Positions 2,051-33,067 of a stretch of DNA of 36,140 nucleotides are shown one piece after another. The notes under the pieces were generated by a model. The model ran no database searches. It was not told where the DNA came from and saw nothing but the letters and a program-made list of their open reading frames with translations. A program made the position numbers and the translations under genes. This DNA comes from Myxococcota bacterium (GTDB lineage: Bacteria > Myxococcota_A > UBA796 > GCA-2862545), in assembly GCA_039208735.1 (NCBI GenBank), contig JBCCQY010000091.1, positions 1 through 36,140 of the forward strand, written 5' to 3'. Numbering within the stretch: position 1 is the first letter of the stretch; every line of letters begins with the position of its first letter.

Positions 2051-4494
<2,444 letters not shown>

Positions 4495-4508
<14 letters not shown>

Positions 4509-4758
4509 GGACGTTCCCATGGCGCTCACGGGACGCGCCGCACGATGGCTCCACCTGCTACAGGACCTCGGCCACATCGACATCGCAACGGCAGATGAGT
4601 TGGTGATGGCAGCGAGCGACCTGCACCGCGAACTCCACCACAAGGGCACACGGGTGGGCCTCGAAACCATCCGTCAGGCCGCAGCCATGGTGCTGTTTCA
4701 GACGGATGCAGAACCGGCCACGATGCTCGACGACGACTGGCCACTGTTGTTCAGCTAG
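4495..4758 (+). CDS. Small protein resembling the C-terminal half of Smg/DUF494
   Basis: Directly downstream of dprA, the usual smg position. Pattern WLHLLQDLGHIDIATADELV...LETIRQAAAMVLF...LLF parallels the Smg C-terminus. Alternative start ATG 4519 with GAGG SD. Confidence 0.6.
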
Positions 4759-5700: not shown

Positions 5701-8700
5701 CAATCGATTTCCACCACCTGCTCGGCGTAGGTTTCGATGAGGTCGCCCTCTTCGAGGTCATTGAAGCCCTCGAGCGAAAGACCACATTCGTAGCCCGCAG
5801 CCACTTCGCGAACGTCGTCCTTGAAGCGCTTGAGGGTGTCCACCTTGCCTTCCCAGATGACCGAACCGCCGCGCAACACCTTGACGAGGTGGTTTCGACC
5901 CACCTTCCCATCGATGACGTAGCAGCCGGCAACCGTACCGATCCGCGAGATGCGGAACAGCACGCGAACCTCGAGCGTACCCTGACGAACCAACTCGTAG
6001 GTGGGAGCCAGAAGTCCCTTCATCTCGCGCTCGATGCGGTCCAATACATCGTAGATGATGGAGTAGAACTCGGGCTCGACACCGAGGTTCGACGCTGCGG
6101 TTCGTGCCTTGGCATCGAACTTGGTGTTGAACCCGATGATCTTTGCGCCGTCGGACGCCGCCAACGTGATGTCGGACTCGGTGACGTCACCGACCGCCGA
6201 CAACAGAATGCGGACCTCGGCGCCATCGACCTGAATGTCTTCGATGGCCGCTCTTAGCGCCTGCAACGAACCCCCTACGTCCGCCTTCAGGATGAGCAGC
6301 AGCGTCTCACGCTCCTCACGCTGGGCAGCATTGTAAAGGTCGCCAATGTCGCGCTTGCTGTGCTTGGCCATCTCTTCTTGGCGCTTGGCCACCGCCCGGT
6401 GCTCGGCCAGGGCCCGAGCGTTTTTCTCGCTCTTGACGGCGTTCACCGAATCGCCGACCTCGGGCAGCCCCGACAGACCAAACAACTCAACCGGTGTCGA
6501 TGGTTCGGCAAGTTTGAGCTTCTTGCCCGCATGGTCGACAAGGGCCCGCACCTTACCAAAGGCCGAACCCAGCACCACGTGATCGCCGCGCTTGAGCGTA
6601 CCCGTCTGGACGAGGACCGACGCCACGGCACCGCGTCCACGTTCCATCTTGGCCTCGAGGACCACCCCTTCCGCGTAGCGATCGGGATTGGCCTTGAGTT
6701 CAAGCACCTCGGCCTGCAGCAAGATCTGCTCGAGCAGATCGTCGATGTTTTCGCCCTTGAGCGCTGAGATAGGCACAAATGGCGTGTCGCCACCCCAATC
6801 CTCAGGCACCAATTCTTCTTGGGCAGAAAGCTGACTCTTGATGGGCTCGTCGGACACGCCAGGCTTGTCCATCTTGTTGACCGCCACGACGATGGGCGTA
6901 TTGGCCGCCCGGGCGTGCGCAATGGCCTCGGAGGTCTGCGGCTGCAATCCGTCGTCCGCTGCAACCACCAGCACAACAATGTCGGTGACGGCCGCCCCAC
7001 GGGCCCGCATGGCGGTAAATGCCTGGTGACCAGGGGTATCGATGAAGGTGATGGGCTGGCCATCGACCTCGACCTGGTAGGCCCCGATATGCTGGGTAAT
7101 GCCACCATCTTCGCCCGCAGCGACGCGGCTGTTGCGGATGGTGTCGAGCAACGTGGTTTTGCCGTGGTCGACGTGGCCCATGATGGTCACGACAGGCGGG
7201 CGAGGCACGAGGTTCTCATCCTCGACGTCCTCGGCGATGTGCTCCAGGTAGTTCTGTTCCTGGAACCCAACGTTTTCGACCTCATAGTCGAACTCTGCGG
7301 CAACCAGTGCGGCCGTGTCCATGTCCAGCATGTCGGTGATGCGCACGCCCTCAGACCCGAGGTCCATGAGCTGCCGAATCACGACCGTAGCCTTGACGCC
7401 AAGCTGCATGCCCAAGTCGCGCACACTGATGACGTTATCGACCCGGACCTTCCGCTTCTGCGCCTTGGGCGTAGGCGACGCCTGCTTCGGGCCGCTACTC
7501 TTGCGCCGCTTGCCTCGACCTGGGCGTCGGTCGTAGCCTCGACCGCCTCCCGATCGTCCACCGCCACGGCCTCGGCCCCGGTAGCCCCCCTGGTCACCAC
7601 CCGCTTCGACCCGTCGACGCGCGCGACCGGGTGTTTGTGCGGATGGAGCGGGCGTCTGCGCCCGAGAGAATTCGGCCGCCTGTTGGCTGCGAAACGCTTG
7701 CGGGTTGTTGGGGTCATAGCCCGGAGGCGGCACCACGACGGCCGAACCCAGACCGCGGAACCGCGGCTTTTCGGGACGCGCCCCGTCGTCGGTTTTGGCA
7801 CCCTCGGCCCCGCTCGCAGCAGCGGCCGGTTCGGGAGCCTTGGCGGGCTCTGGCGTCGGCGTCGCGGTCTTCGCGGCCGGAGACACCCGAGTGGCTCCGC
7901 GGCCGGTACGACGCCGAATGTCGCGCACCGGGCGACCTGCCCGGCGCTCGGCCTGACGAGGCGAACCTGCGCTGCCGTTACTGGCAGGCTTGGCGGCTTC
8001 GGCAGGCTTGGCGGCTTCGGCAGGCTTGGCGGCTTCGGCAGGCTTGGCGGCTTCGGCAGGCTTCGGAGCAGAGGCTGGCTCTGGCTTCGGCGCCGGCTTG
8101 GAGGCCTTCGCTTCGACGGGTTTCGGAGCCGGCTTCGGCTCAGGCTGGGCCTTGGCTTCCGGCTTGGGCGCGGGCTTCGGCTCAGGCTTGGGCTCGGCCT
8201 TCGCCGGCGGCTCCGGCTTGGGTTCGACCGCCTTCACCTCAGCCGGCTTCGGCTCGGGAGCTGGCGTAGGGACGGGAACCGGGACCGGCGCAGGCTCGGG
8301 CTCGGCTTTCACCTCGGCCTCAACCGGAGGAACCGGCATCGGCGCAGGCTTCGGCTCGGGCGCCTGTGGCGGCGGTGCCGCCTCGGCCTGCACAGGCTCA
8401 GGTGTTGGCTCGGCCTTCACGGGTTCAGGTGCCGGCGTGGGCTCCGGATCGGGAGCGGGAGCCGGCGCTTCGGCCACCGGTTCAGGCTCCGGCTCGGGAG
8501 CTGGCGGAGCCGGCGTCTCCTGCGGAGGCTCTTCCGTTTCGTCACGTCGCGCGCGACGCATCACGCGCTTCGACGACGATCCCGGCGCACCGTTCGCGGC
8601 CGATCCGTTCGAGGCCGCGGGGCTGGCTTCGGCCGGCGTGGCGTTTGCCGACTCATCTTCCGTCTTGCCTTTGCCAGGGCGGCGAACACGCCGCAAAACA

Positions 8701-8831
8701 CGCTGTCCGACCCGGGTCGTCGTCGTCTCCCCGCGCCGAGGCGCACTTTCCTCTTCGCTACGGCGCGAATTTCGCACCGGCGTATCCGAGGAGGCCCGGT
8801 TCAAGCGTTCGAGGAGGTCCTTTTTCGACAT
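5700..8831 (-). CDS. infB: Translation initiation factor IF-2
   Basis: [50 protein letters not shown] motifs; long Pro/Ala/Glu/Lys-rich N-terminal region. Confidence 0.99.
7983..8063. repeat. Perfect 18-bp tandem repeat x4.5 inside infB (encodes EAAKPA)
   Basis: GGCAGGCTTGGCGGCTTC repeated identically at 7983, 8001, 8019 and 8037, plus a partial copy at 8055. Confidence 0.95.
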
Positions 8832-8999
8832 GCAGTCCTTTAATGAAGTTCAACCGCAGCACGGTGCGTAAGGCACCAGGCGCGTAATGCGGCGTCGACC
8901 CATCGACCAACAGGCATTCTGCCGTCCAGAGTGGCTACTGCCATGCCGGTCGATTCCAAAGGACGGGTAGACCGCCGTACCCCACCCGTCCGCAGTGCC

Positions 9000-9578
9000 C
9001 TAACCCAAATCTCGGAAACGTTGCAACTGGCCGCGCAAGTAGTCCGTCGCAGGAATCGGGACCACCCCGAGGACAGCGCAAGAACCCTGTCCAATCTGGC
9101 CGCCGATGGTTTCACGCGTCCATGGAATTCGCAATGGTTCGATTTCTGCTTCGTCGGTCACTCGTCGTAAGGCCTGGACCGTCCTGGCAGATGCATCTTC
9201 GGCAGTGAGAACATCGACGACCCGACCTTCCTGGATCGCCGCCACAAGCCGGTCAAAACCCACCACCAGTCCGCCCCCTGCGGCCGCAAGTGACAAGCCG
9301 TGAAACAAGGCCTGTCGCACCGCCGCTACGAAGATCGCCTCGAGTTGGGAAACGTCCATTCGCTGTCGAAGTGTTCGGTTCAGCCCATGCGGCTTTGCGA
9401 TCACCGCGGCAATGCAGGACGCACGGGCGTGCAACCACGCGCCCCGACCCGGAAGCCGGCCCTTTAAGTCGACGACGAGTTGACCGTCGGGCGACGCGAC
9501 GAGCCGAACCAACGCGTCTCGATCGGTTCGATCCCGACACCCAATGCACTGCCGGACCGCGGTCCGCTCACTCCGCAT
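9000..9578 (-). CDS. ylxR: YlxR/DUF448 - L7Ae (YlxQ-like) fusion protein
   Basis: N-half: RQCIGCR...LVR...GRGAWL...C (YlxR). C-half: GLSLAAAGGGLVVG...AEDAS...IGGQIG (L7Ae-like). Between nusA and infB. Confidence 0.88.
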   Translation of the reverse strand: MRSERTAVRQCIGCRDRTDRDALVRLVASPDGQLVVDLKGRLPGRGAWLHARASCIAAVIAKPHGLNRTLRQRMDVSQLEAIFVAAVRQALFHGLSLAAAGGGLVVGFDRLVAAIQEGRVVDVLTAEDASARTVQALRRVTDEAEIEPLRIPWTRETIGGQIGQGSCAVLGVVPIPATDYLRGQLQRFRDLG

Positions 9579-11007
9579 CGGCCCTCACGGCATCGGTCTC
9601 GCCGGGTTCTTCAGGCAGAGCGTCGTCCCCCATGAGGTCGAATTCCTCGGTGGGAACCGGATCGGCCTCGCGCTTGGGAGGCTCAGGCTCAGAGTCCTCT
9701 GGCTCGTCATCGGCCAATGCGGGCAGTCCCGATTCAGCACGACGCCGCTCCTCGGCCTCTTCCATGATCATCTGCCCAACGACATCGTCGGCCTGGGCAA
9801 TGACCTGCTCGGCCTCCTCTTCGGAAACCTGCAGAATGGCCGCGATCTCACCCACATCTGACTCGGCCACTTCCACGACCTTTTGGAAGCCATGCCGGAC
9901 CAACGTGTCGACCGCCGCTTCATCGATGGTCTGAATGCGATCCAGCTCCGAACGAGCGGCATCGAGCATGTCTTGGTGCTTGGTCTCGCTGTAGATGTCG
10001 ATCCGCCAGCCGGTCAGCTGGGCGGCGAGCCGCACGTTCTGGCCTCGACGACCGATCGCTTTGGCAAGCTGATCGTCAGGCACCACGAGTTCCATCGTGT
10101 GGTTCGCTTCATCAATGTACACGCGGCTCACGTTGGCCGGGGCGATCGCCTGCACGATGAATCGCGCGGGATCGGGGTGCCACGAAATGATGTCAATGGC
10201 CTCACCCCGGAGTTCACCCACCACGGCCTGCACCCGTGATCCCTTGAGACCGACACATGCGCCCACCGGATCCACATCAGGATCGTTGGAGGAAACCGCA
10301 ATCTTGGCCCGGTGCCCTGGCTCACGTGCGCAGGCCTCGATGGTCACGATGCCCTCGTAGATCTCAGGCACCTCCATCTCAAACAGCTTCATGAGCAACA
10401 CAGGGTGCGTCCGCGAGAGCACCACCTGCGGCTGACGTGTCGCCCGCGTAATATCCAGGACAAACGCCTGAATTCGATCGCCTGGACGGTAGGTCTCGGT
10501 CGGGACCTGCTCCCGTCGCGGCAAGATCGCCTCGGCCCGGTTGAGGTCAACGATGATGTTGCCCTTTTCGAACCGCCGCACGATGCCGGTGATGAGTTCA
10601 CCCTTTCGGTCTTTGAACTCATTGAAGGTCAGCTCGCGTTCGGCATCGCGAATCTTCTGGATGATGACTTGCTTCGCCGTCTGCGCGGCGATTCGACCGA
10701 GGCCTTCAGAGTCCATGATGCGACCGAAGGAATCGCCTTCCTGGAAGTCGGGATCCTCGGCTTGCGCCTCCTCGATCGCAATCTCGAGTTCGGGATCTTC
10801 GACTTCGGCGACCACCGTGCGCCATTCTTGGAGCTCGACCTCGCCCGAGTCGGGGTTGTAGGCTGCCTCGATGTCGCGCTCCATCCCGTACTTCTTCCGG
10901 GCGGCCGCCACCATTGCGCTCTCGAGGATTTCGATCACCACATCACGCGGAATGTTCTTTTCGTTTTTGATGGCCTCGATCAGCTGCTCTAGATCGCTGG
11001 TGATCAT
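9568..11007 (-). CDS. nusA: Transcription termination/antitermination factor NusA
   Basis: GRIAAQTAKQVIIQKIR, EVPEIYEG, DPVGACVG..GSR, AIGRRGQNVRLAAQLTGW motifs. Confidence 0.99.
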   Translation of the reverse strand: MITSDLEQLIEAIKNEKNIPRDVVIEILESAMVAAARKKYGMERDIEAAYNPDSGEVELQEWRTVVAEVEDPELEIAIEEAQAEDPDFQEGDSFGRIMDSEGLGRIAAQTAKQVIIQKIRDAERELTFNEFKDRKGELITGIVRRFEKGNIIVDLNRAEAILPRREQVPTETYRPGDRIQAFVLDITRATRQPQVVLSRTHPVLLMKLFEMEVPEIYEGIVTIEACAREPGHRAKIAVSSNDPDVDPVGACVGLKGSRVQAVVGELRGEAIDIISWHPDPARFIVQAIAPANVSRVYIDEANHTMELVVPDDQLAKAIGRRGQNVRLAAQLTGWRIDIYSETKHQDMLDAARSELDRIQTIDEAAVDTLVRHGFQKVVEVAESDVGEIAAILQVSEEEAEQVIAQADDVVGQMIMEEAEERRRAESGLPALADDEPEDSEPEPPKREADPVPTEEFDLMGDDALPEEPGETDAVRADAE

Positions 11008-11495
11008 GATGGGCCCTCCGCCAGTTTCTGGTATTCGTCGAGGTCGAGGACGAGATGGGCGCGCTCCACAAGGTCGAGCGCGACGCGATGTTCGGTGCCG
11101 TCCATCGACAGACGGAGTTCTCCGTCCTCGATGGGTCCGATGACGCCGGTGTAGCGTCGTCGCGGCGGCCCCTCTGAAAGCCGGATTTTGACGCGGTAAC
11201 CTTGAAACCGCTCGAAATCCTGCTCCCGTTGAATCGGGCGCTCGATGCCCGGGCTGCTGACTTCCAAGTGGTAGGACGACGCAATCGGATCGTCCGCGTC
11301 GAGCAGCGGGGAGACGTGGTGCGAAACCCGCACACAGTCCTCGGCCGTCACCCCACCTGGGGCGTCAACCGACAATCTTAAGATAGGCCCCGATCGACCC
11401 GACGACCACTCCACGGCGACCAAATCGAAGCCGAGCTGCTCCACTGGCCCCTCGAGGAGCGAACGCACGCGCGTCTGTAGGGTTCGTGCATCCAT
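11004..11495 (-). CDS. rimP: Ribosome maturation factor RimP
   Basis: GVTAEDC..VS..VSPLLD..DPI..SYHLEVSSPGIERP signature; overlaps the nusA start. Confidence 0.96.
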   Translation of the reverse strand: MDARTLQTRVRSLLEGPVEQLGFDLVAVEWSSGRSGPILRLSVDAPGGVTAEDCVRVSHHVSPLLDADDPIASSYHLEVSSPGIERPIQREQDFERFQGYRVKIRLSEGPPRRRYTGVIGPIEDGELRLSMDGTEHRVALDLVERAHLVLDLDEYQKLAEGPS

Positions 11496-11515
11496 GCTGA
11501 TGTCCGAGATCAGAA

Positions 11516-11548
11516 CGGGGGACCGGTCTGGAAAAGACCGCTCCCCCG
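11516..11548 (-). promoter_or_regulatory. rimP leader hairpin (possible attenuator)
   Basis: On the mRNA strand CGGGGGA-G-CGGTCT-TTTCC-AGACCG-G-TCCCCCG followed by TTCT, 20 nt before the rimP start. Confidence 0.6.
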
Positions 11549-11635
11549 CACAGAGGTTCGTCACTTGTCAAAGCCATAACCTGTCTCGCAGAACGTCCCG
11601 CGAACCTCGACGCGGTAAGCCCCCGGACTCGTGGG

Positions 11636-12553
11636 CTAGAGCTTGTCTTTTGCCAGTTTCGCGGCGTCAGACCCCTTGCAGCCTCGGTCGGTCGCACCCT
11701 TGTAGAAGGCCTTGGCGGCGCTCGGACCCTTGACCCGCTCGAACGACTCACCCATCCGATACATCGACCAGCATCGCCAATCCGACTTCGGATGGTTGTT
11801 GAGAACCTTGTTGAACTCCTTGATGGCGCCTTTGTAGTCGCCCTCGTTGAAGTAGGTCTCGGCGTGGCGATACCGAATCTCGGCCATTTCGTCGGCCCCC
11901 GGATGCGCATCGATCGCATCGGCCAGGATCGCACGAGCCACCGTCTGACGTCCGTCCTTCATGTGGCCAATCGCCAAGGCAAGTTTTTCTTTCGCGGTCG
12001 ACGCGGCCGAACCAGGCGTGTCGTCGGACGCGCTGTTCTTGCCCTTGCGCTTGGTCCCCCCCGACGACGGAGGAGGCGACGAACCATCGGCGGACGCGGT
12101 GCGCGTGTCGGTACCGTCCAAGCCAAGGTCAGCGTCCGTAGGCACGGGTGGCGGCTCGATCTTGAGGTACGACTCGACCTGCGCCAACCGCATCTCAGCG
12201 TGGAGCTGACGGCGCTCCGTCTCAAGCTGAAAGTCCGCCAGCGACTGCTTGACCTCGGCCGACTCGAACTGCAGGACCTCGATCGCTCCGCGCAGTCGGG
12301 CGACCTCGGCGTTCACCTGGTCGATGTTCTCGAGCCGTGTCTGTTCATCGCGGCCTTGGGTTCGAATGACCTCTTCGACCTGCTCGACTCGAAGCTCGGC
12401 CTCGACCAGCAGTGCCTCGAGCTGGGCCAGTCGCACCTGGGTAGTCGTGAGCTGTCGCGACACTTCCGCAGAAGGATCCGCAGCCTGTGCCGTTGAGAAC
12501 TGGACGGCGATGCCCCCCAACAGAAGAGTCGCCAACAATCCGATCGGCCTCAC
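11636..12553 (-). CDS. cpoB: Tol-Pal system protein CpoB/YbgF-like (coiled coil plus TPR)
   Basis: Signal peptide, coiled-coil (QVNAEVARLRGAIEVLQFE), TPR repeats (YRHAETYFNEGDYKGAIKEF); directly downstream of the pal-like gene. Confidence 0.82.
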   Translation of the reverse strand: MRPIGLLATLLLGGIAVQFSTAQAADPSAEVSRQLTTTQVRLAQLEALLVEAELRVEQVEEVIRTQGRDEQTRLENIDQVNAEVARLRGAIEVLQFESAEVKQSLADFQLETERRQLHAEMRLAQVESYLKIEPPPVPTDADLGLDGTDTRTASADGSSPPPSSGGTKRKGKNSASDDTPGSAASTAKEKLALAIGHMKDGRQTVARAILADAIDAHPGADEMAEIRYRHAETYFNEGDYKGAIKEFNKVLNNHPKSDWRCWSMYRMGESFERVKGPSAAKAFYKGATDRGCKGSDAAKLAKDKL

Positions 12554-12577
12554 GATTTCACCCCGCTCCGCCAGGAA

Positions 12578-13291
12578 TTACTCAGTGACAGAGATTTCGG
12601 CTCGGCGATTCTGGCTGAACGCCAGTTCGGTCTGGCCACGATTGACCGGACGCTCCTCGCCGTACGAGACCGTGGTAACACGGCTCGATGCCACCCCATT
12701 GCGGGTGAGGTACTTCTCGACAGTGTCGGCGCGACGTTGGCCGAGAGCCAGGTTGTAGTCGGTGGTGCCTCGAGCGTCGGCATGGCCAGCCACACGAACC
12801 TGCCCCACCATTTCCTGGAAGCAGGCCATCTCGCCGTCAAGCATGGTTCGCGCGTCCTTTCGAAGCCCCGATCGATCGAAGTCGAAATTGACGGTCATCT
12901 GGCGACACGAACCGTCGCTCGTCTTCACGGACAACCCACCCCGGAGCGTGGAACGCTCACCCGACGGGTTTTCGACCACCACGTCGTAGGAACCCAAGGG
13001 CAGGGCGGGGATCATAAGTTCGATCGTGTTGCCGCCGCTAACGCCAACCGATCCGCCAACCGCCTCGGTCGGTCCCACAAACTGGACGGTCGCCCCCATC
13101 TCAAAAGCACTGCCAAAGATCTTTCCCGCCACCGACTGGTCGGGCAAGACCGACGCGGGACTAATGGCGCTGACCTGTAGGGCCACCTCGACGGACTGCG
13201 GCGGTGCACTGGCCACATTGGGCGACTTTTTCGAACAACCCATCACCCCGGCGAGCGCGAGCGTCGCCATCGCAGCAAAACGTGCGGACAT
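12578..13291 (-). CDS. pal: Pal/OmpA-C lipoprotein with an inserted IPT/TIG-like domain
   Basis: Lipobox-like LAGVMG-C. C-terminal FDFDRS...GHADARGTTDYNLALGQRRA...SYGEERP...NRRAE is Pal-type. AGGAGG SD before ATG 13291. Confidence 0.82.
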   Translation of the reverse strand: MSARFAAMATLALAGVMGCSKKSPNVASAPPQSVEVALQVSAISPASVLPDQSVAGKIFGSAFEMGATVQFVGPTEAVGGSVGVSGGNTIELMIPALPLGSYDVVVENPSGERSTLRGGLSVKTSDGSCRQMTVNFDFDRSGLRKDARTMLDGEMACFQEMVGQVRVAGHADARGTTDYNLALGQRRADTVEKYLTRNGVASSRVTTVSYGEERPVNRGQTELAFSQNRRAEISVTE

Positions 13292-13367
13292 GCTGGCCTC
13301 CTGTAGGACTTCCAACCCGTCGTGGGCTGGCGTCCTCGGGTCAGGCGATTAAGGCCCAGGCCGTACC

Positions 13368-14666
13368 GTGTCAAACCCACCGCCCTGGCCTTTGTTTGCT
13401 GCTGTGACGGCCGCTTTTGGCGGTTCTGTCGTCACGGCGATGCTCTTACACCAGGCCGCAGATCGCAGTGAGGCCTCCATCGTCGTGGCCATCGCGATCC
13501 TCTGGGGCGCAGTGGTCGTGGGGTTACGCCGGCACCTCGAAGCCGGCTCGGAGTGGTGGCTCCTCGGAGCGGCCCTGCTCGTCCGTCTTTCCTTCGTGGG
13601 AACCCCTCCTCTACTGTCGGACGACCTCTATCGGTACGTGTTTGAAGGAAAAGCCCTATGGGCCGGTCACAACCCTCTCACGCAGGCCCCACAGACCCTT
13701 CCGGGGATCGACGATGAATTGTTGGCGCTGGTCAACCACCCCGAGGTCTCGACGGTCTACCCGCCCGTGGCGCTGCTGTGGTTCCGGCTGCTTGCGCTCT
13801 TCGGCACCGCATGGGGCGTGCAACTCGCAACGGCCCTCTTCGACACGTTGACCGTCTGGGGTGTTCGCAGCGCCACCCGCCACCACTGGCCAGCCTGGAT
13901 CTACGCCTTACATCCGCTGGTGATTCTCGAGGGAGCCCATGCCGGCCACCTGGATCTCGTTGCGGTGGGGTTTGCGGTTTGGGGAGTTGCTGCATTCCGC
14001 CACGGTCGATTCGCTTGGGCGGGGACCGCGCTGGTCGCGGGCGGCGGCGTGAAACTGTTGCCCTTTGCGTTTGTCCTACGGCCGGTTTTAGCCTTACGAC
14101 GCCGGTGGATCGTGATCTTAGGCTGGCTACTCGCGGGACTCGCGATCAGCGGTGTCTACCTGGAGGCCGGAATCGACGGCCTGACGGGGCTTCGGACCTA
14201 CGCGCGAGAGTGGTCCTTCAATCCACTGGCCTTCGCCCTCGTGGAACCATGGCTCGAAGAGTGGACCCGCCCCGTTCTGGTGGCCATCGGCGCCCTGGTC
14301 AGCCTGCGCGCCCTCCGCCACGAGGATCCGGCCCGGACGTGGCTAGAGATTGGACTCGCCTTCGTGGTCCTGTCCCCCACCGTACATCCCTGGTACCTGT
14401 TGTGGGCGATGGTACCCGGCTTGCTCCTCGAAGATCCACGAGGCGCGGCGGCCACCCTGGGGTACCTGCCCGCCTACACCATTCTCCTAAGTTTCGACCC
14501 CGCGACCGGGCAATGGACCGAGGCAGCCTGGCTGCCCTTTCTCACCTGGGTGCCAATGCTGGCGATCTACCTATTTACTCCCGCAGAGAGTACCCCGCGA
14601 CAATCGCATAGCCCCCCGCAAACAGCAGCAGGAACGGCAGCGACAGGTAGTCCCCTGCCCAAATGA
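13368..14666 (+). CDS. GT-C fold multi-pass membrane glycosyltransferase (GT87/DUF2029-like)
   Basis: LSDDLYRY..EG...GHNP, TVYPP, GHLD, VKLLP, VHPWY motifs with many TM segments. Confidence 0.85.
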   Translation: MSNPPPWPLFAAVTAAFGGSVVTAMLLHQAADRSEASIVVAIAILWGAVVVGLRRHLEAGSEWWLLGAALLVRLSFVGTPPLLSDDLYRYVFEGKALWAGHNPLTQAPQTLPGIDDELLALVNHPEVSTVYPPVALLWFRLLALFGTAWGVQLATALFDTLTVWGVRSATRHHWPAWIYALHPLVILEGAHAGHLDLVAVGFAVWGVAAFRHGRFAWAGTALVAGGGVKLLPFAFVLRPVLALRRRWIVILGWLLAGLAISGVYLEAGIDGLTGLRTYAREWSFNPLAFALVEPWLEEWTRPVLVAIGALVSLRALRHEDPARTWLEIGLAFVVLSPTVHPWYLLWAMVPGLLLEDPRGAAATLGYLPAYTILLSFDPATGQWTEAAWLPFLTWVPMLAIYLFTPAESTPRQSHSPPQTAAGTAATGSPLPK

Positions 14667-16325: not shown

Positions 16326-16357
16326 GACCCCCTTCCGTTGGAAGGGGGTCTTCTGTT
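16326..16357 (+). terminator. Intrinsic terminator of the 6S-like RNA (may also serve ftsZ)
   Basis: GACCCCCTTCC-GTT-GGAAGGGGGTC followed by TTCTGTT on the + strand. Confidence 0.75.
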
Positions 16358-17480
16358 ATCCGTCGAAGTGACCGAAGAACGTCGGAATATCGTAGTCTTC
16401 GTAGATCGGGTCGACGGCCTCGCGAAGCCGATTCCGTGGTTCGGGCTTGGGCGGTGGCGTCCGTGCGATGCGATCGATGGTCCGGCGCTCGGTCGACGAG
16501 GGGGTCAACAGATGCCGAGACTCCTCCAGGCCCGTGGCGATGACGGTGACTCGAGCCTCGTCCTGCATCGACTCATCGACCACCCAGCCCCAGATCACCT
16601 CGGCGTCCTCATGCGCCTCTTCCTGGATGAGGGAACTCGCCTCATGGATCTCGTACATCGTGAGGTTGGGGTTGCCCGTGATGTTGATGAGCAGGGAGCG
16701 TGCACCCACAATCGAGACATCGTCGAGCAACGGCGACCCAATCGCTTGGCGCGCGGCCTCGACGGTCTTGTGTTCGCCACGGCCTCGACCCACCCCCATC
16801 ATGGCTTTGCCCTGGCTCGCCATGATCGTGCGCACGTCGGCAAAGTCGACGTTGACCATGCCCTGGAAGTTCACGAGGTCACTGACCCCTTGAATGGCCT
16901 GCATCAGCACCTCGTCGGCCATGTGAAAGGCCTCTTTCATGGAGGTGCGTTCCGACGCCATGGCCACCAGGCGTTGGTTGGGAATGGAAATCAGCGTGTC
17001 CGCGTTCGACAGCAGCGCCTCAATCCCGTTGGCGGCCTGCTGACGGCGCTTCTTCCCCTCGAAGTTGAAGGGACGTGTCACCACAGCCACCGTCAGTGCG
17101 CCACAGTCCCTCGCGATCTGACAGATGATGGGCGCGGCACCCGTGCCCGTGCCGCCGCCCATGCCGGCCGTGACGAAGACCATTTCGGCGCCCATCACAA
17201 GTTCAGCAATGCGATCGCGGTCCTCGAGCGCGGCTTCTCGGCCCACTTCGGGATTCGCTCCTGCGCCCAACCCTTTGGTGAGCTGCTCCCCCAACTGGAA
17301 GCGACGAGGTGCAAGCGAGCGTCTGAGGTCTTGGGCGTCGGTGTTCATCGCGATGAGTTCGACGCCGGAAAGCCCAGCCCCAATCATCGTATTGATGGCG
17401 TTGCCTCCGCCTCCCCCGACCCCAATGACCTTGATGCGGGCGCGCGCGGGGACCTCTTCCTCGTCGGTGATCTCCATCAT
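16356..17480 (-). CDS. ftsZ: Cell division protein FtsZ
   Basis: [22 protein letters not shown] tubulin signature, NVDFADV, C-terminal DIPTF. Confidence 0.99.
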
Positions 17481-18307: not shown

Positions 18308-18445
18308 TTCGGGACGGGAGGAAGGGAAAAAGCCAGGGGGAATGCGCTGAGAGTTCGCATCTCCCTCGTTTCGAAGTACCTGGCTCCCGAAGCGAGCCCC
18401 ATCCGATACGGCTACACGCCGGTTACATAGGAAACGAGTACAGTT

Positions 18446-19267
18446 TCACCGACCAGCGGAGATTCCGATCCAGCGCACGCGAGGCGCGAGGACCTCCCCC
18501 CGAACAACCTTCACGCGATCCACCATCGACCGAACGAGGAGCTGAACGTCCTCGGCGGTCGCTCCGCCGAGATTGACCACCATTTCTGGTGTTTCGCGAG
18601 GGATCGCGGCCCGACGCAATCGGACCATCGGCAAACGGGCGCTGCGGATCAGCTCGCGAAGGCCGTCGGACTGCGGCGCGCCAAACCAGGCCCCCGGGGG
18701 CACCGGCTCGGCTCGCGCGAGGATGCGGGAGGTCGCTTCACGCACTTCCTCCGTCGTAGAGGTCTCCAGGGTGAGCATCGCCCCCACCACCACGGCCGTC
18801 TTCTTGCCGCGAACATCGGCCAGATCAGCATCGACCACCTTGCCTCGGCGCCACACCTTGACGGTGTCGACGACGTCCTCCCATCCATCGTCGTGAACCA
18901 AAGCGGCCCCGAGCGACCCTGCCGTGCACGCAAATCGCTCGAGGCCGGTATGGCCCACCGCAGCCGCCCGTGCGACCATCGCGGGGACCGGCCTCGCAGC
19001 GCCGACCCAGTGAATCGAACCTCGAACCTCATGCCCCGCGAACCCCATTCCAAGCCGGAGGAGCGCGCCTCGGACGCCACCGGCTCGAGCCAACGTACGG
19101 GTTCCCGCCCCGAGCATCGACGGCCGCACGTTGCGCACTCGGCACCACGCCCATGCATCTCGTAGTCCCACTTCATCGTGGGCCACCAAGTAGGCCTCGC
19201 AGGGGCCCCCAAGTCGAATCGCAAGATGGCGCGCAAGCGGCTCGTTTTCGAGCAGCGTGAAGCTCAA
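18446..19267 (-). CDS. murB: MurB-like protein with degenerate catalytic motifs
   Basis: MurB scaffold (ENEPLARH..IRLGGP, GHTGLE, VNLGGATAEDV..L...V) after murC, but the GxGSN, MNAG, YRxS, GSxF, HANF and LExEV motifs are all altered. Confidence 0.8.
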   Translation of the reverse strand: MSFTLLENEPLARHLAIRLGGPCEAYLVAHDEVGLRDAWAWCRVRNVRPSMLGAGTRTLARAGGVRGALLRLGMGFAGHEVRGSIHWVGAARPVPAMVARAAAVGHTGLERFACTAGSLGAALVHDDGWEDVVDTVKVWRRGKVVDADLADVRGKKTAVVVGAMLTLETSTTEEVREATSRILARAEPVPPGAWFGAPQSDGLRELIRSARLPMVRLRRAAIPRETPEMVVNLGGATAEDVQLLVRSMVDRVKVVRGEVLAPRVRWIGISAGR

Positions 19268-20640
19268 GACAGGCGCTCGTTCAGCTCATGGACGACCCGG
19301 TTCACATTCCCCGCGCCGAGCGAAATGACGATGTCGCCCTCTCGCACTTCGCCCGCCAGTCCTTCGATCGCTGCCTCGAGCGACTCGATGGCACGCGTGC
19401 CTCGGTGCCCGCGATCTCGCATCTCGGCCGCCAGATGGTAATGATCAATGCCCTCGATCGGCGCTTCGCCCGCCGGGTAAACGGGGCAAATCCAAACCTC
19501 GGCCGCACGATTGAATGCCGAGCAGAACTCGGACCACAGGTTCTGGACCCGCGAGTAGCGGTGGGGCTGGAACACGGCGATGGTGCGCCGGGTGGGCCAA
19601 GCGGCCTCCGCCGCATGCAACGTGGCCTCGATTTCAACCGGGTGGTGGGCGTAATCATCTACAAGGATCACGTCCTTGGGTTCCCCCAGAACCGTGAACC
19701 GGCGTTGGACCCCGGTGAAGTTGTGAAGGCCCGCCTGCACCTTGTCGAAGGGAATCAACAGCTCCATAGCCGTTGCGATGGCTCCGGTCGCATTCTGAAC
19801 ATTGTGATATCCCGGCATTCCAAGAACGATTTCACCAAGCGGCCGGTCATGATAGAACAGCGTGAATCGGCTCGTCATCCCCTCGAAGGACGGAGGACCC
19901 GCGCGGAAATCGGCGTGTCGCGCAAAGCCGTAGGTCACGACGGGCCGCCGCACCCGTGGAATCAGCTCTTGCACCCTCGGATGATCGAGGCACAACACGG
20001 CAAAGCCGTAAAAAGGCACCCGATTCGCGAAGTCCGTGAACGAGGATTCGAGATTGCTGATCGAGCCGTGGTGGTCGAGGTGTTCGGGATCGATGTTGGT
20101 CACCACCGTCACCGTCGGCGACAACTCGTTGAACGTCCCGTCGGACTCGTCCGCTTCGGCCACCAAGTATTCACCTGCGCCAAGCTTCGCATTGGAGCCT
20201 CCGAGGCTATCGAGACGCCCGCCGATCACGACCGTCGGATCGAGCCCGCCGGCGGCCAAACAACTAGCCAGCATGGACGTCGTCGTGGTCTTGCCATGGG
20301 TGCCCGCCACCGCGATGCCGTACTTGAGACGCATCAGCTCCGCGAGCATCTCGGCCCGTCGAATGACCGGGATCTTGTTCAAGAGGGCGGCGTGGCACTC
20401 CGGATTGTCGAGCTTCACGGCCGTGGAACGCACGACAACATCGACCTCTCCCACGTGAGAGGGATCGTGGCCGATGAACACTTTCGCGCCAAGTTCCCGG
20501 AGCCGCTCCACGGTTGGCGACTCGCGAATATCGGAACCGCTCACCGAGAAGCCAAGGTTGATCAGCACCTCTGCGATGCCGCTCATCCCGATTCCACCGA
20601 TTCCGACGAAGTGAATGGCTTTGACCTTGCCGCGAAACAT
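19264..20640 (-). CDS. murC: UDP-N-acetylmuramate--L-alanine ligase
   Basis: IHFVGIGGIGMSG, GTHGKTTT, EADESDG, DDYAHHP, FQPHRYSR motifs; GGAGG SD. Confidence 0.98.
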   Translation of the reverse strand: MFRGKVKAIHFVGIGGIGMSGIAEVLINLGFSVSGSDIRESPTVERLRELGAKVFIGHDPSHVGEVDVVVRSTAVKLDNPECHAALLNKIPVIRRAEMLAELMRLKYGIAVAGTHGKTTTTSMLASCLAAGGLDPTVVIGGRLDSLGGSNAKLGAGEYLVAEADESDGTFNELSPTVTVVTNIDPEHLDHHGSISNLESSFTDFANRVPFYGFAVLCLDHPRVQELIPRVRRPVVTYGFARHADFRAGPPSFEGMTSRFTLFYHDRPLGEIVLGMPGYHNVQNATGAIATAMELLIPFDKVQAGLHNFTGVQRRFTVLGEPKDVILVDDYAHHPVEIEATLHAAEAAWPTRRTIAVFQPHRYSRVQNLWSEFCSAFNRAAEVWICPVYPAGEAPIEGIDHYHLAAEMRDRGHRGTRAIESLEAAIEGLAGEVREGDIVISLGAGNVNRVVHELNERLS

Positions 20641-20678
20641 GGGTGTCGTGCTCCTCCACGCCCCAAAGTAGCCGGGGA

Positions 20679-21839
20679 TCAGTCGCGCCCCACCCTCGTG
20701 CCGATCCGAACCAACACGCCGACGGCAAACGCATGGACGGCCGCCGCGGATGCGCCATAGGACACGAACGGCAGCACCAGGCCCTTGGTAGGGAACACGC
20801 CGCCCACCACGCCAATGTTGATGGTGGCCTGAATCGCGAACAACGTTGCAATGCCGCCGGCCACCCAACATCCAAAGGACGAACCCGCCCGGCGGGCGAT
20901 CGCGAAGCTGGCCGCTACGAGGGCCAACTGCAAGGCAACGACAGCCGCGATTCCCACCGCGCCCAGTTCTTCACCAACCACCGCCAGGATGAAGTCGTTG
21001 TGCACCTCGGGCAAAAAGCCACGCTGGACGACGCCGTTGGCGAGCCCCACCCCCGTAGGCCCGCCCGCCGCCAAGGCGATCCAGGATTGCACGACCTGAA
21101 ACCCGGTTCCCGAGGCATCCGCAAACGGGTCCACAAAGCCGAGCACGCGCTGCAGCCGATAGGGTTCGATCGCGACCAGGACGAGAAGGGCGCCCCCCAC
21201 ACCGCTCGCAAAGGCCAGCACCCACCGCCATCGCAAGCCGGCCAGGATGAACAGCACGCCCACGAGTGCCAACAAGATGGCGGTCGTCCCGAAGTCTCGC
21301 TGGACGATCACCAAGGCCACCGCCGGCAGGACCAACCCGACGCCCGGCAGTGCGATCCCGACGAGCTCATTCACCCGGTCGCGGTAGTGGGCCAGGTAGT
21401 CCGCAAGCACCCCGATCACCGTGAGCTTGGCGATCTCCGAAGGCTGAAGGTGGATCGGCCCCAACGCAAGCCAGCGCGTCGCCCCACCCGCGGTGTGCCC
21501 CAAGGGCGTCGCGACCAGCAGGAGCAGACCGAGCGTCGCCAGATAGGCCGGCCCGGCAAGTCGACGCAGGGTACCCGCCGGCGCACGAACCAACAGCAAC
21601 GAGGCCACCAGACCCAGGCCAAGGCCTGCGGCCTGACGAACCACGAAGTGTCCAGAGTAGCCGTATTGGTAGGCCGCTCGCATGGCGGTCGCACTTTGAA
21701 TGATGACCAGGCCAAAGCCCGCTAGGGTCACGGCCGCTACCGCCAACACCACCACCGCCGTGCCCGCCCCCAAACGGGGGTGCGACAAGGACGGGAAGCT
21801 TCGCGACGAGACGGGCTGAACAGCCCCATCTTGGTTCAT
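20679..21839 (-). CDS. ftsW: SEDS peptidoglycan glycosyltransferase FtsW
   Basis: RWL...QPSE..K, DFGT, LPEVHNDFI..V.GEELG, LPFVSYG motifs; dcw position. Confidence 0.93.
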   Translation of the reverse strand: MNQDGAVQPVSSRSFPSLSHPRLGAGTAVVVLAVAAVTLAGFGLVIIQSATAMRAAYQYGYSGHFVVRQAAGLGLGLVASLLLVRAPAGTLRRLAGPAYLATLGLLLLVATPLGHTAGGATRWLALGPIHLQPSEIAKLTVIGVLADYLAHYRDRVNELVGIALPGVGLVLPAVALVIVQRDFGTTAILLALVGVLFILAGLRWRWVLAFASGVGGALLVLVAIEPYRLQRVLGFVDPFADASGTGFQVVQSWIALAAGGPTGVGLANGVVQRGFLPEVHNDFILAVVGEELGAVGIAAVVALQLALVAASFAIARRAGSSFGCWVAGGIATLFAIQATINIGVVGGVFPTKGLVLPFVSYGASAAAVHAFAVGVLVRIGTRVGRD

Positions 21840-29293: not shown

Positions 29294-29562
29294 CGCGCCT
29301 CCCGAGGCGCTTCGACGATCTCGACGTCGTCTGTGAGACCGAGTTCCGCCGCGACACGCTCGGCCTCGATCAGTCGACGACGGGCGTCGCGTTCAAGGGC
29401 CAACCGCTGGTTCAACACCCGGGCCTTGCGAATGGCGGCTCCGGTGCGATCGAGATCACGGCGCAGCTGATGCACCTCGATCCGAACCTGCAGCCAGACC
29501 ATCACCACCACAATGAGGCATGCAAGCCAAATCCCGTAGCGAACCGGCACACTCGGGGTCAT
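29290..29562 (-). CDS. ftsL: Cell division protein FtsL
   Basis: 90 aa, TM helix plus coiled coil ending ERVAAELGL; between rsmH and ftsI with overlapping start/stop codons. Confidence 0.85.
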   Translation of the reverse strand: MTPSVPVRYGIWLACLIVVVMVWLQVRIEVHQLRRDLDRTGAAIRKARVLNQRLALERDARRRLIEAERVAAELGLTDDVEIVEAPREAR

Positions 29563-30458
29563 GCGAGTCTCCGAGCGGTTCGAAGGCGCGCCGATCGGGC
29601 GCGGGGGTTCGGGTCGTCCGCGGCCGGGACATCGTTGCGCTCGACCGCGAGGCGGACCGACCCCACAGGATTGCCGAACGGGTCGCGAGGGCGTCCCTTG
29701 CCCGCATGGTGCGCAAAGAACTGCTTTACGATTCGATCTTCGAGCGAGTGGAAGGTGATGATCGCAATGCGACCCCCAACGGCCACCGCGTTGAGCGCGG
29801 CCGCCAGCAACCGTTCCAGCTGCCCTAGCTCGTCGTTTGTGGCAATCCGAATCGCCTGAAACGTTCGGGTGGCCGGATGAATACGCCCTTTGCCACGCCC
29901 GACGACCGCCGCGACCACGTCCGCGAGGGCCGTGGTTGTGGTGAGCGGACGCGCCTGGACAATGGCTCGGGCCACCGCACGCGCTCGCCGCTCCTCACCG
30001 AGTGTCGCGATGATCGTGCGCAACTCGTCCTCGGGGGCTTCGTTGACGTAGTACCCGGCTTTGGTGATCCCGTGGGGATCCATCCGCATGTCGAGAGGGC
30101 CTTCCGAGCGAAAGGAAAAGCCGCGTTTTGGGGTGTCGAGCTGGTGGGACGACACCCCAAGATCTGCGAGCACGCCCACGATCGGACCGTCGAGTTCCGA
30201 AGCCAAAGCTGGCAAATCACCGAAGGATCCCTGCACCAGCCGAACTCGATCCCCGAACCGAGCCGTTCGCTCACCCGCGGCAGCGAGCGCAGCCGGGTCA
30301 CGATCGATGCCCAGCAGTCGACCGTTTGTCGCGTCGAGCAGGGCTTCGGCGTGGCCCCCTCCTCCAACCGTGCCATCGACGATCCACGCGTCTTCAACGG
30401 GCCCGATGCCAGCCACGACCTCATCCTTGAGGACAGGGACGTGGTGGAAGGACGTCAC
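29559..30458 (-). CDS. rsmH: 16S rRNA m4C1402 methyltransferase RsmH (MraW)
   Basis: HVPVL, DGTVGGGGH, DLGVSSHQLD..RGFSF, PLDMRM, HPATRTFQAIRI, FHSLEDR motifs. GTGA overlap with mraZ. Confidence 0.98.
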   Translation of the reverse strand: MTSFHHVPVLKDEVVAGIGPVEDAWIVDGTVGGGGHAEALLDATNGRLLGIDRDPAALAAAGERTARFGDRVRLVQGSFGDLPALASELDGPIVGVLADLGVSSHQLDTPKRGFSFRSEGPLDMRMDPHGITKAGYYVNEAPEDELRTIIATLGEERRARAVARAIVQARPLTTTTALADVVAAVVGRGKGRIHPATRTFQAIRIATNDELGQLERLLAAALNAVAVGGRIAIITFHSLEDRIVKQFFAHHAGKGRPRDPFGNPVGSVRLAVERNDVPAADDPNPRARSARLRTARRLA

Positions 30459-30901
30459 TCTTGTCGACCCGGCATGCCGGACCGGGCTTCGGTACGGGAC
30501 AATGACTCTTGGAAGCGCTCTTCCCAAGTCGCCTTGTCCCAGATTTCGACGTGGCCCAACAGGACGTGCACGACGCATTCTCTCTGCAGCCCAGCGAGCT
30601 TGCGCAACGGGGCAGGAATGCGGATGCGGCCCTGTCGGTCGATGTCGCAGTCTTGGGCCGTCGACATCGTGGAGTGGGCGAAATCGAGCACTTCGGCTTG
30701 GAACGGGTCCTGCTCGATCATGTGGCGCTCGACTTCCTTCTCGTAGTGGTCCGCCGTCCATGCCCATACGGCACGACGCGAGTAGGTCAGCACCAAAGAG
30801 GTTTGCCCTGCTTCCTCGATGGCACGACGAATGGGCGCAGGCAAGGCCAAACGCCCCTTTGCGTCGATAGTGACGTGCTGCTGACATCGAACCCGAATCA
30901 C
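30455..30901 (-). CDS. mraZ: Transcriptional regulator MraZ
   Basis: Two AbrB-like repeats (IDAKGRLALP, IDRQGRIRIP) and VEIWD; first gene of the dcw cluster. Confidence 0.96.
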   Translation of the reverse strand: MIRVRCQQHVTIDAKGRLALPAPIRRAIEEAGQTSLVLTYSRRAVWAWTADHYEKEVERHMIEQDPFQAEVLDFAHSTMSTAQDCDIDRQGRIRIPAPLRKLAGLQRECVVHVLLGHVEIWDKATWEERFQESLSRTEARSGMPGRQE

Positions 30902-30937
30902 GTGAAGAGAGCCAGTTGCCCGTGGAAGGGGTGTGTT

Positions 30938-30971
30938 CCCGCTTCCCCCACTTTACACCACTTTCCCCCAC
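30938..30971 (-). promoter_or_regulatory. MraZ operator (direct repeats at 10-bp periodicity)
   Basis: Minus strand GTGGGggaaa GTGGTgtaaa GTGGGggaa GCGGG, about 40-70 nt upstream of mraZ; matches the known TGGGN/GTGG MraZ repeats. Confidence 0.85.
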
Positions 30972-31195
30972 CCGCAAGACGACGGCGCGTGAAGCAAGGG
31001 GGCCTCAGGCTCAGCGATCCTTGCCTCGAAGCTAAAGAGTTTACGACTCTACACCGACGCGCGCACTCGGGTTTCCCAGCCCGTGAAGGCTCCATGAGCC
31101 CCACAATCGGCCCCCCGACGAGACCGGGTTCCCACTTTCTCCCACCCGTCGTGCCGCGAACGGCCGAACCGCGCGAAGCTGGATACGACATGGTC

Positions 31196-31657
31196 ATGGC
31201 CAAACCAGCCGCGAATGGCGACCGCGTCTTGATCGACAACCGACGGGCACGCCACGAGTTCGAACTTGTTGAAACCATCGAGGCCGGCATGGCCTTGCTG
31301 GGCAGCGAAGTGAAGTCGCTGCGGCAAGGCAACGCAAACCTCGCCGAGGCCTACGTGCGCCTCCAGCCTGAAGGGGCCAGTCTGGTCGGGTGTCACATCG
31401 CTCCCTACGCCGAGGCGAACCGCCAGAACCACGAACCCACGCGGCCGCGCCGCTTGTTGTTGCACCGCCATCAGCTGACAAAGCTTGAACGTGCGGTCAA
31501 GCAGCGAGGCATGACGGTCGTACCCGTCAAGATGTACCTGAAGAATCGACGAGTGAAGCTCGAGATTGCACTGGCCCGAGGCAAGCGCCTGCACGACAAG
31601 CGTCATGACCTCAAGGCTCGGGATGCGAAGCGGGAGATCGCCCGCACACGCAGCTGA
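31196..31657 (+). CDS. smpB: SsrA-binding protein SmpB
   Basis: NRRARHEF, EAGMALLGSEVKSLR, HIAPY, RRLLLH, GKRLHDKR motifs. Alternative start 31190. Confidence 0.98.
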   Translation: MAKPAANGDRVLIDNRRARHEFELVETIEAGMALLGSEVKSLRQGNANLAEAYVRLQPEGASLVGCHIAPYAEANRQNHEPTRPRRLLLHRHQLTKLERAVKQRGMTVVPVKMYLKNRRVKLEIALARGKRLHDKRHDLKARDAKREIARTRS

Positions 31658-31712
31658 TCAGGTCGCCAGCGACAGATTGCTCCCGGCTGGACGCGAAGAT
31701 AAGCCCCGCCCC

Positions 31713-33065
31713 ATGGAAGATCTACGCTCGTACGCTCCCTTCGGCGTAGCCGCACTTGTCGGGCTACTCGGCTTCGCGGCTGGTGATTGGTCGTTGTTGG
31801 TCTGGCTCATCGCCGCGGCCATTGCTTGTGGAGGGGTCGTCTGGCTCGAGACGCGCTGGGGCATTTTCGCCACTGCGCTGCTTGGGCTGGGCGCTAGCAG
31901 CTACCTCTTCTCCCGCAAACTCGACTCGAGTGGTTTCGAGTTGTGCGCCGTCAACAGCGTTCAAAACTGTGACCTCGTCAACTCATCGGCCGCTTCCGAG
32001 ATCGCTGGTGTACCCATTGCCCTGTTGGGATGTGGGTATTTCCTAGGCTTAGCTGCCGCCGCGGCTCTAAACACCGACGAACAACGCCAGCCGCTGTTCC
32101 GCGTGACCCTGCTGACCGCGGCGGCGGGCTGCCTGTATTCGCTGTACCTGTTCAGCCAAATGATGCAGCTCGGGGCGATCTGCCCGATGTGCTACGCGAT
32201 CTACATGTCGTGCGGCATTCTGGTGTGGGCGGGACTTCGGGGACTTCAACAGACAGGCGGCACGCCCCTCGACGAATTGGGCGACACCGCTTCCTCCACG
32301 AGCTTCGTGACCGTCTTCGGCACCCTTGTCGCGGTCGTGCTCATCGGAATGAGCAACTACAACAGCCGTGGAACCGGAACTGCCACGGCCAAGCCTGTCG
32401 ACCCCGACGATGCCGACGCGGTTGAGCAACTACGCACGATGTATGCTCCACCCAGTGGCGAAGTGGCGCTTCAAGGGGACGAACCGGTGCTCGGTGACCC
32501 TAACGCGCCCTACATCGTGCTGGAGTACGCGGACTTTGGATGCCCGCACTGTGCGATGGCCGCGGTTCAGCTTAAAGAACTCGTGAAGCAACATCCCGAA
32601 ATCCAAGTTCGGTTCCGGCCCTTCGCGTTGTCCGGCGCCTGCAACCCTGCCCTTCCCCCATCGAAGGATGGCATCGACCGTTGCCGCGCCGCAATGGCGG
32701 CGGAATGTGCCACAAATCAAGGCCGTTTCTGGGATTACAGCGCGTTGGTGTTTGCCAATCAGCGTGATCTCTCGGATGCCGCCCTCGAAGCTGCGGCTCA
32801 GCAAGCCGGACTTGATGTGGAAGCGTGGAAGACCTGCATGCAAGAGGTCGACACCGCGAGTGCGGTCGTCGCCGATGCAGAAGCTGGATTCCGGGCTGGC
32901 GTCCGCGGCACTCCCACCCTCTTCTTGAAGGGCGTTCAAGGGGATCGATGGCTGGATGTATGTGCGGGCCCTGAAGGCATCCTGATGTTGACGCAACTCC
33001 ACCAGGACGGCTCTGCCATCCCCGATCCGAAGTTTGGCAGCTGCGAAGAGGCGCACGGGCACTAG
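31713..33065 (+). CDS. VKOR - DsbA/thioredoxin fusion disulfide-bond formation protein
   Basis: VKOR loop cysteines (CAVNSVQNCDLVNSS..S.IAGVP) and membrane CPMC; DsbA domain EYADFGCPHC with cis-Pro loop GTPT. Confidence 0.9.
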   Translation: MEDLRSYAPFGVAALVGLLGFAAGDWSLLVWLIAAAIACGGVVWLETRWGIFATALLGLGASSYLFSRKLDSSGFELCAVNSVQNCDLVNSSAASEIAGVPIALLGCGYFLGLAAAAALNTDEQRQPLFRVTLLTAAAGCLYSLYLFSQMMQLGAICPMCYAIYMSCGILVWAGLRGLQQTGGTPLDELGDTASSTSFVTVFGTLVAVVLIGMSNYNSRGTGTATAKPVDPDDADAVEQLRTMYAPPSGEVALQGDEPVLGDPNAPYIVLEYADFGCPHCAMAAVQLKELVKQHPEIQVRFRPFALSGACNPALPPSKDGIDRCRAAMAAECATNQGRFWDYSALVFANQRDLSDAALEAAAQQAGLDVEAWKTCMQEVDTASAVVADAEAGFRAGVRGTPTLFLKGVQGDRWLDVCAGPEGILMLTQLHQDGSAIPDPKFGSCEEAHGH

Positions 33066-33067
33066 CG

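Follow-up and report, generated by a model that had tools for sequence, protein, structure and literature searches.

Background

MurB (UDP-N-acetylenolpyruvoylglucosamine reductase, EC 1.3.1.98) catalyzes the NADPH-dependent reduction of enolpyruvyl-UDP-GlcNAc. In the MurB fold, the pyrophosphate of FAD is held by two loops with the patterns G-x-G-[ST] and PG[ST]xG. On the substrate side, a passage of PMC12844806 assigns Arg159 and Glu325 to the substrate carboxylate and Tyr190, Lys217, Asn233, and Glu288 to the diphosphate (E. coli numbering). Ser229 is the general acid, as worded in the Benson 1997 titles in the reference list of the same article, and the S229A change by itself gives the classic inactive-mutant structure of the E. 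coli enzyme (title of PDB entry 1uxy; Benson 1997 titles in PMC12844806). Physical linkage of MurB to a neighboring enzyme is also on record, since chimeras of MurC and MurB in Verrucomicrobia are reported in PMC10214165. A degenerate or inactive MurB paralogue was not found described anywhere in full-text literature searches.

The stretch of DNA analyzed here, referred to as the window, comprises the 36,140 nucleotides of contig JBCCQY010000091.1 from a metagenome-assembled genome (MAG) of a Myxococcota bacterium (GCA_039208735.1). It encodes, within a division and cell-wall (dcw) gene cluster, a 273-residue paralogue with the MurB fold and without the MurB catalytic residues, which was named dMurB.

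Gene order and features of the locus

The division and cell-wall cluster lies on the minus strand, and dMurB is its ninth gene; the order is rsmH/mraW, ftsI (with PASTA), murE, murF, mraY, murD, ftsW, murC, dMurB, ftsQ, and ftsZ. The features around the gene are as follows.

20679..21839, minus strand: ftsW (domain match), directly upstream of murC, with no murG between them
19264..20871, minus strand: canonical murC (UDP-MurNAc:L-Ala ligase), TIGR01082 score 513.8 bits versus a cut-off of 335.1
19264..19267, minus strand: TTGA overlap of the murC stop (TGA) and the dMurB start (TTG), from the sequence cTTGAg and the ORF coordinates
18446..19267, minus strand: dMurB, 273-aa MurB-fold paralogue without catalytic residues, TTG start, TGA stop
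18308..18445, minus strand: 138-nt spacer from dMurB to ftsQ; ddl stands at the equivalent place in relatives L051 and L046
17477..18307, minus strand: ftsQ (POTRA domain), domain match
16356..17480, minus strand: ftsZ (domain match), with no ftsA between ftsQ and ftsZ

The initial annotation had described a 273-aa frame free of stops and frameshifts and joined to murC by a GTGA overlap. The frame is indeed an uninterrupted run of 273 codons at 18446-19267 of the minus strand, and the plus strand of the same segment is full of other frames. The overlap with murC also exists, but its sequence had been misread: it is cTTGAg, so that a TTG start, not a GTG, lies over the TGA stop. This start-stop overlap suggests that translation of murC and dMurB is coupled. 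In the two relatives in which ddl sits between the dead murB and ftsQ (L051 and L046), ddl overlaps the dead murB by about 20 nt.

Two neighboring ORFs are longer than their recognized domains. The longest ORF of murC starts 192 nt inside ftsW, and about 85 residues precede its Mur ligase domain, which starts at residue 86 (window 20679-20871). Matches to this leading segment by tblastn start at residues 15-20 in some relatives. The segment may be a genuine N-terminal extension, or else an artefact of the assigned start site. The rsmH/mraW ORF (29559-30977) encodes 472 aa, of which the methyltransferase domain covers residues 177-470 only; its first 176 residues gave no match in Pfam, and an MraZ domain was not detected. 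The flanks of the cluster (2051-14666 and 31566-35039) carry ordinary housekeeping genes, among them purA, infB, ylxR, nusA, rimP, and a TPR/TolA-binding-like gene, together with genes for an OmpA-family protein, GT87-like and GT2 glycosyltransferases, VKOR-DsbA, prmA, and rsmE.

Homology and fold of dMurB

Profile searches identified dMurB as a MurB homologue at a level well above chance. The NCBIfam model NF010480 was matched over residues 4-269 with E=1.4e-24, and the best relatives of solved structure were all MurB proteins (PDB 4pyt, E=1.8e-17). The scores nevertheless lie below every curated MurB cut-off (NF010480, 86.5 versus 259 bits; TIGR00179, 50.2 versus 144.5) and below the Pfam cut-offs for MurB_C (25.7 versus 27) and FAD_binding_4 (16.5 versus 26.4). 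All 39 dcw-linked copies recovered from the order to which the window belongs match NF010480, the best of them with an E-value of only 6.5e-35.

A structure was predicted with AlphaFold2 (AF2) from an alignment of 35 family sequences, giving a mean pLDDT of 92.3 and a pTM of 0.87. Foldseek aligned this model to the MurB structures 3tx1, 4pyt, 9dtk, and 1hsk with TM scores of 0.84-0.87 (E about 1e-22), and the next fold class, other PCMH flavoenzymes, reached only about 0.5. A distant orthologue, taken from family f4, likewise yielded a MurB fold (pLDDT 95.5, TM 0.77-0.81). The profile E-values and the modelled structures thus bear out the earlier statement that the MurB scaffold is still recognizable, and they place it beyond doubt that dMurB is a MurB homologue, with a predicted three-domain MurB fold.

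Loss of active-site and cofactor residues

The initial annotation had listed a set of replaced motifs, and each of them is present in the translation: GAGTR at residues 53-57, TAGSLGAALVHDDG at 115-128, GAWFGA at 192-197, ETPEM at 225-229, and LAPRV at 260-264. To locate the catalytic positions, the family profile was aligned to S. aureus MurB (1hsk), whose catalytic residues we take to be R188, S238, and E308, numbers that fit the 1hsk chain index. S238 falls on dMurB position 193, an alanine, and E308 on position 263, an arginine. Y187-R188 of 1hsk lie in an insertion relative to the dMurB profile and have no counterpart in it, which indicates that the YR segment is deleted, in agreement with the earlier report of a missing YRxS segment. 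R153 of dMurB is offset by one position from the Arg that was lost, and it is only moderately conserved among orthologues. The claim that the Arg/Ser/Glu set is lost therefore held in both the structure-guided and the profile alignments, neither of which offered equivalent catalytic residues.

Conservation was then compared column by column between 60 canonical Myxococcota MurBs and the 39 dcw-linked copies of the order, using the numbering of sequence L001. The canonical set has 42 columns that are at least 90% conserved; the dcw copies retain 10 of these, nearly all glycines, and have lost 16. None of the 39 copies has the canonical residue at N60, N130, Y166, N220, or K236, and it is rare at H249 (1/39), R167 and E286 (3/39 each), and R203 (4/39). 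Of the catalytic set, Ser (S216) is found in 14 of the 39, and Arg and Glu in three each. Nine of the ten polar residues that are invariant in canonical MurBs are accordingly absent, or nearly so, from the dMurB orthologues. Where Ser is replaced the orthologues have A, G, C, L, Q, or R, and the Glu position is occupied by R, N, C, Q, or A. The lost columns include those presumed to contact the diphosphate and sugar of the substrate (N220, K236, H249, and R203, all given as L001 columns, the alignment to type I MurB reaching the N-terminal domain only).

The cofactor loops have fared differently among families. Neither the Asn of GxGSN nor the Asn of MNAG occurs in any of the 39 copies. The glycines of G-x-G-[ST] and PG[ST]xG are retained in family f1, which includes the window, so that these members may still bind a flavin or nucleotide and perform some chemistry, as far as can be judged from their motifs. 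In families f2-f7 the GxGxx loop has been replaced altogether, for example by WPFAD or HGLSD. Since the f4 orthologue is predicted to fold as a MurB despite this replacement, it is the fold that appears to be conserved, and not the cofactor or substrate site. Taken as a whole, the residue comparisons support the conclusion that the active site is lost and that dMurB would not be competent as a MurB.

Residues and charge gained by the dcw copies

The dcw copies have conserved residues of their own. Invariant positions in family f1 are R18, G20, G21, G53, R57, L72, G73, G89, P93, G117, R216, and P223, and the near-invariant ones include R61, D126, W129, R141, R218, P227, and R251; across the whole order, R18, G21, G89, G117, and R216 are invariant. 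Some of the changes fall on canonical positions, with R218 (90%) in place of a Gly, P227 (85%) in place of an Ala, and Arg at the old catalytic Glu position in 56% of the dcw copies. The dead copies are also strongly basic: the pI exceeds 8.5 in 37 of 39 (median 10.0), versus 3 of 33 canonical paralogues (median 6.7). These arginines and the basic pI suggest an anionic partner or ligand. Basicity is not common to all degenerate copies, however, as a pI above 8.5 was calculated for only three of eight from other orders of the class.

Canonical murB and the remaining precursor pathway

The MAG comprises 9.4 Mb in 288 contigs and is 92.7% complete with an estimated contamination of 6.15%. A canonical murB was located on contig C15 (G000:C15), which answers the earlier suggestion that a paralogue supplies the reductase step: its 296-aa product has all of the motifs, scores 217 bits against TIGR00179 (cut-off 144.5), and shares 29% identity with the dcw copy. 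It is predicted to reduce enolpyruvyl-UDP-GlcNAc in place of dMurB. The genes murA (C76), murG (C11), and ddl (C173) also lie away from the dcw cluster, so that the precursor pathway is complete without the dMurB ORF. Although contamination of the MAG is estimated at 6.15%, the occurrence of paired murB genes in the relatives argues against an artefact. In terms of cluster organization, murG, ddl, and the working murB have moved out of the dcw cluster of this genome to C11, C173, and C15, respectively.

No FtsA was found in the genome of the window, where the best match to TIGR01174 anywhere was 21 bits. In a sample of the phylum, the genomes with no FtsA match above the cut-off were exactly the 16 that belong to the order of the window, and all 105 others had one. 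A coupling between loss of FtsA and dMurB was considered and rejected, because FtsA and a degenerate dcw MurB occur together in other orders of the class.

Conservation, phylogeny, and selection

Forty relatives from seven families of one order were sampled and, with the genome of the window, gave 41 genomes. A copy directly after murC was recovered in 39 of them, the exceptions being G004 (80% complete) and G040 (88% complete), from which no dcw copy was retrieved. None of the 39 copies contains an internal stop. Thirty-three solo canonical copies with every motif were recovered from the same genomes. Rows with partial tblastn matches (L074 and L078), with no tblastn match (L183 and L186), or with an internal stop in the extracted sequence (L198) were dropped; the f3 genomes of the first two (G032:C56 and G026:C89) encode long-form MurBs above the TIGR00179 cut-off. 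When 70 genomes of the class were searched separately with the dMurB profile, each of the 45 belonging to the order gave a match of 169-346 bits together with a second MurB-like match.

Trees were calculated with all 109 rows (quick tree) and, by maximum likelihood, with 60 of them (careful tree). In the careful tree, support was 99/92 for the dcw clade of the order, 100/98 for family f1 and 95/87 for families f2-f7 within the dcw copies, and 100/98 for the solo clade. The dcw and solo clades both match the kinship of the genomes, which implies that the two paralogues were already present in the ancestor of the order and have passed down vertically from it.

The ratio of nonsynonymous to synonymous substitution (omega) was estimated by the Nei-Gojobori method (NG86) with 1000 codon bootstraps. 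For the window and its nearest genome omega was 0.14 (95% CI 0.09-0.20), and for dMurB pairs from f4, f3, and f8 it was 0.30 (0.21-0.41), 0.46 (0.34-0.63), and 0.32 (0.23-0.44), respectively; the canonical copy in the same f4 genomes gave 0.30 (0.21-0.41). Omega reached 1 in none of the 1000 bootstraps of any pair. The dS values of the tested pairs were 0.6-1.1, near saturation for most, and NG86 is crude at the GC3 of these genomes (0.74-0.95). Values of 0.3-0.46 for dMurB are relaxed in comparison with many housekeeping genes. As omega is well below 1 and internal stops are lacking, an explanation by neutral decay fails. The initial annotation would have been undermined by orthologues that were absent or evolving neutrally; they are present in 45 of 45 sampled genomes of the order, and omega is 0.14-0.46 in four independent pairs with no bootstrap of 1000 at 1.

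Wider distribution and MurB variants

Among 121 genomes of the phylum (120 and that of the window), 118 encode a MurB above the cut-off, and second copies below the threshold are essentially confined to the class of the window. In other orders of this class, degenerate copies follow murC in f11, f10, and parts of f8 and f9, and they are accompanied by a solo MurB of a different subtype, which is either the long type I or the GNAG/FKNLP type. The dcw copy still looks canonical in family f44 and in three f8/f9 genomes, and in other Myxococcota classes a canonical MurB is encoded either after murC or as a solo gene. In the trees, all 47 degenerate copies are placed together by a weakly supported branch (quick tree 71, careful tree 73/45), a grouping that long-branch attraction may have caused.

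The family profile was also searched against a library of 1.84 billion proteins (representatives at 50% identity). Among the best 150 matches the count of canonical polar residues is bimodal: 113, some of them fragments, carry three or fewer of the ten, 37 carry at least eight, and none carries four to seven.

Several other variants were encountered. Otherwise canonical MurBs in which Cys replaces the general-acid Ser (AGC[VL]FKN) account for 13 of the best 150 matches (P0105, P0137, P0147, and others). Cys-type MurBs linked to the dcw cluster occur within the class as L180, L181, and L182 (genomes G115, G156, and G151) and are apparently the sole MurB in G151 and G156. Natural fusions join a Cys-type canonical MurB to the C-terminal half of a Mur ligase (P0149) or to MurG/GT28 (P0169). 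The dcw copy L177 (G063:C113) keeps PGTVGGA and H.N, but the Asn of GxGSN, the YR, the Ser, and the Glu are gone; by its motifs it looks like an early stage of decay, and a long-form canonical MurB is encoded on another contig.

Discussion

The initial annotation interpreted the gene as a pseudo-enzyme, and this interpretation is reinforced by the loss of the catalytic residues, the retention of the fold, purifying selection, order-wide retention, and the presence of a canonical paralogue. We consider it probable, on balance, that dMurB, a strongly basic protein, assists MurC and the machinery of the division cluster in a non-catalytic capacity, with reduction carried out by the canonical murB. 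The sequence of events that we envisage would begin with an ancestral dcw-encoded MurB that had a structural or regulatory role in addition to catalysis, the most economical guess being either contact with MurC or Ddl or with division proteins encoded nearby, or binding of an anion of the UDP-sugar type by the new arginines. After catalysis had been taken over by a second murB, the dcw copy would have been free to lose its active site while being retained for the second role. The fusions of MurB to neighboring enzymes (P0149 and P0169), together with the chimeras reported in Verrucomicrobia, give indirect support to a placement of MurB beside MurC or MurG. A more specific proposal, which we offer tentatively and hold with well under even confidence, is that dMurB is a dedicated basic subunit organizing the late cytoplasmic precursor steps (MurC/Ddl) at the divisome in an order without FtsA, and that this moonlighting role of MurB pre-dates its catalytic death and is perhaps hidden in the canonical dcw MurBs of other bacteria. 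If so, a structural role of MurB older than the loss of catalysis would be revealed.

Other explanations were weighed against the same evidence. It is unlikely, in our judgement, that dMurB is a neofunctionalized MurB-fold enzyme or small-molecule binder that accepts another anionic substrate, with or without flavin, by means of the new arginines. The f1 copies do keep G-x-G-[ST] and PG[ST]xG, the newly conserved residues R57, R61, D126, W129, R141, R216, R218, and R251 map to, or close to, what were the cofactor and substrate regions, and purifying selection on dMurB equals that on the real enzyme. A single catalytic site is nevertheless hard to reconcile with the replacement of GxGxx in f2-f7 and with an order-wide core of only R216 and a few glycines, and the polar residues of the canonical active site have all disappeared. 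Still less credible is a working MurB with an unorthodox active site, the canonical copy being redundant or a contaminant; to this we assign very little weight. The contamination estimate of 6.15%, the position of R153 near the lost Arg, and the Ser in 14 of 39 orthologues might be read in its favor, but the canonical copy is also found in relatives, in a clade that matches genome kinship (100/98), the Ser and Glu positions vary freely among orthologues, and S229A alone inactivates E. coli MurB, to go by the titles of 1uxy and of Benson 1997.

A decaying relic could also be held in frame for reasons acting in cis, such as operon architecture, the coupling of murC, this ORF, and ddl or ftsQ, or embedded signals for the expression of ftsQ and ftsZ. 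In its favor are the 4-nt overlap with murC and, in relatives, the overlap of ddl by about 20 nt, and the position of murB in the B. subtilis dcw cluster matters according to the title of Real and Henriques 2006, as cited in PMC10214165. We nonetheless regard this explanation as very unlikely, because it leaves unaccounted for an omega significantly below 1 in four independent pairs, the lack of internal stops in all 39 copies, the clade-specific invariant residues, the very confident AF2 models obtained from family alignments, and the persistence of the copy across the order despite up to about 75% amino-acid divergence. A scan for promoter-like sequences, moreover, was not above shuffles, with one found and 0.6 expected.

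The accessory role favored here would have consequences for annotation and for the view of the pathway. In the source annotations of the relatives, the dead copies are labelled 'FAD-binding protein' or, in several cases, 'UDP-N-acetylmuramate dehydrogenase', and metabolic reconstructions would be misled by the latter. The enzymes of the Mur pathway are regarded as soluble and purely catalytic. If selection keeps a dead MurB at its ancestral place in the dcw cluster, MurB would seem to have a further role, structural or regulatory in nature, which would bear on the long-discussed complexes of Mur enzymes. The dMurB family would then be a natural separation-of-function variant for roles of MurB besides reduction.

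Comparison with known systems

The closest described proteins are the type II (short) MurBs, represented by those of S. aureus (1HSK) and L. monocytogenes (3TX1) and by a metagenomic protein (4PYT), which have the same fold and length class as dMurB. The MurBs of other Myxococcota classes (L185, L187-189, and L193) also occupy the same place after murC in the dcw cluster, and the N-terminal H..R.GG and the PGxxG glycine framework are shared. Unlike these enzymes, dMurB does not have the Arg/Ser/Glu set or the N60, N130, Y166, R203, N220, K236, and H249 columns, has a pI of about 10 versus about 6.5, and coexists with a canonical MurB.

In the MurG-MurB fusion and in the MurC-MurB proteins of Verrucomicrobia (as reported in PMC10214165), the MurB module is physically tied to a neighbor, whereas dMurB is a separate protein whose gene overlaps murC by a start and stop codon. 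The fused modules of P0149 and P0169 keep nine of the ten canonical residues, only the Ser being replaced, by Cys; dMurB is unfused and, by the same residues, catalytically dead.

Among envelope pseudoenzymes, the degenerate LytM factors EnvC and NlpD activate amidases. dMurB resembles them in retaining an enzyme fold without the catalytic residues, in being conserved, and in being genetically tied to its pathway. It differs in fold and in compartment, belonging to the cytoplasmic precursor pathway, and its regulatory role is putative. dMurB probably represents a pseudoenzyme branch of the MurB family that is conserved across an order, perhaps a class, of mostly uncultured Myxococcota.
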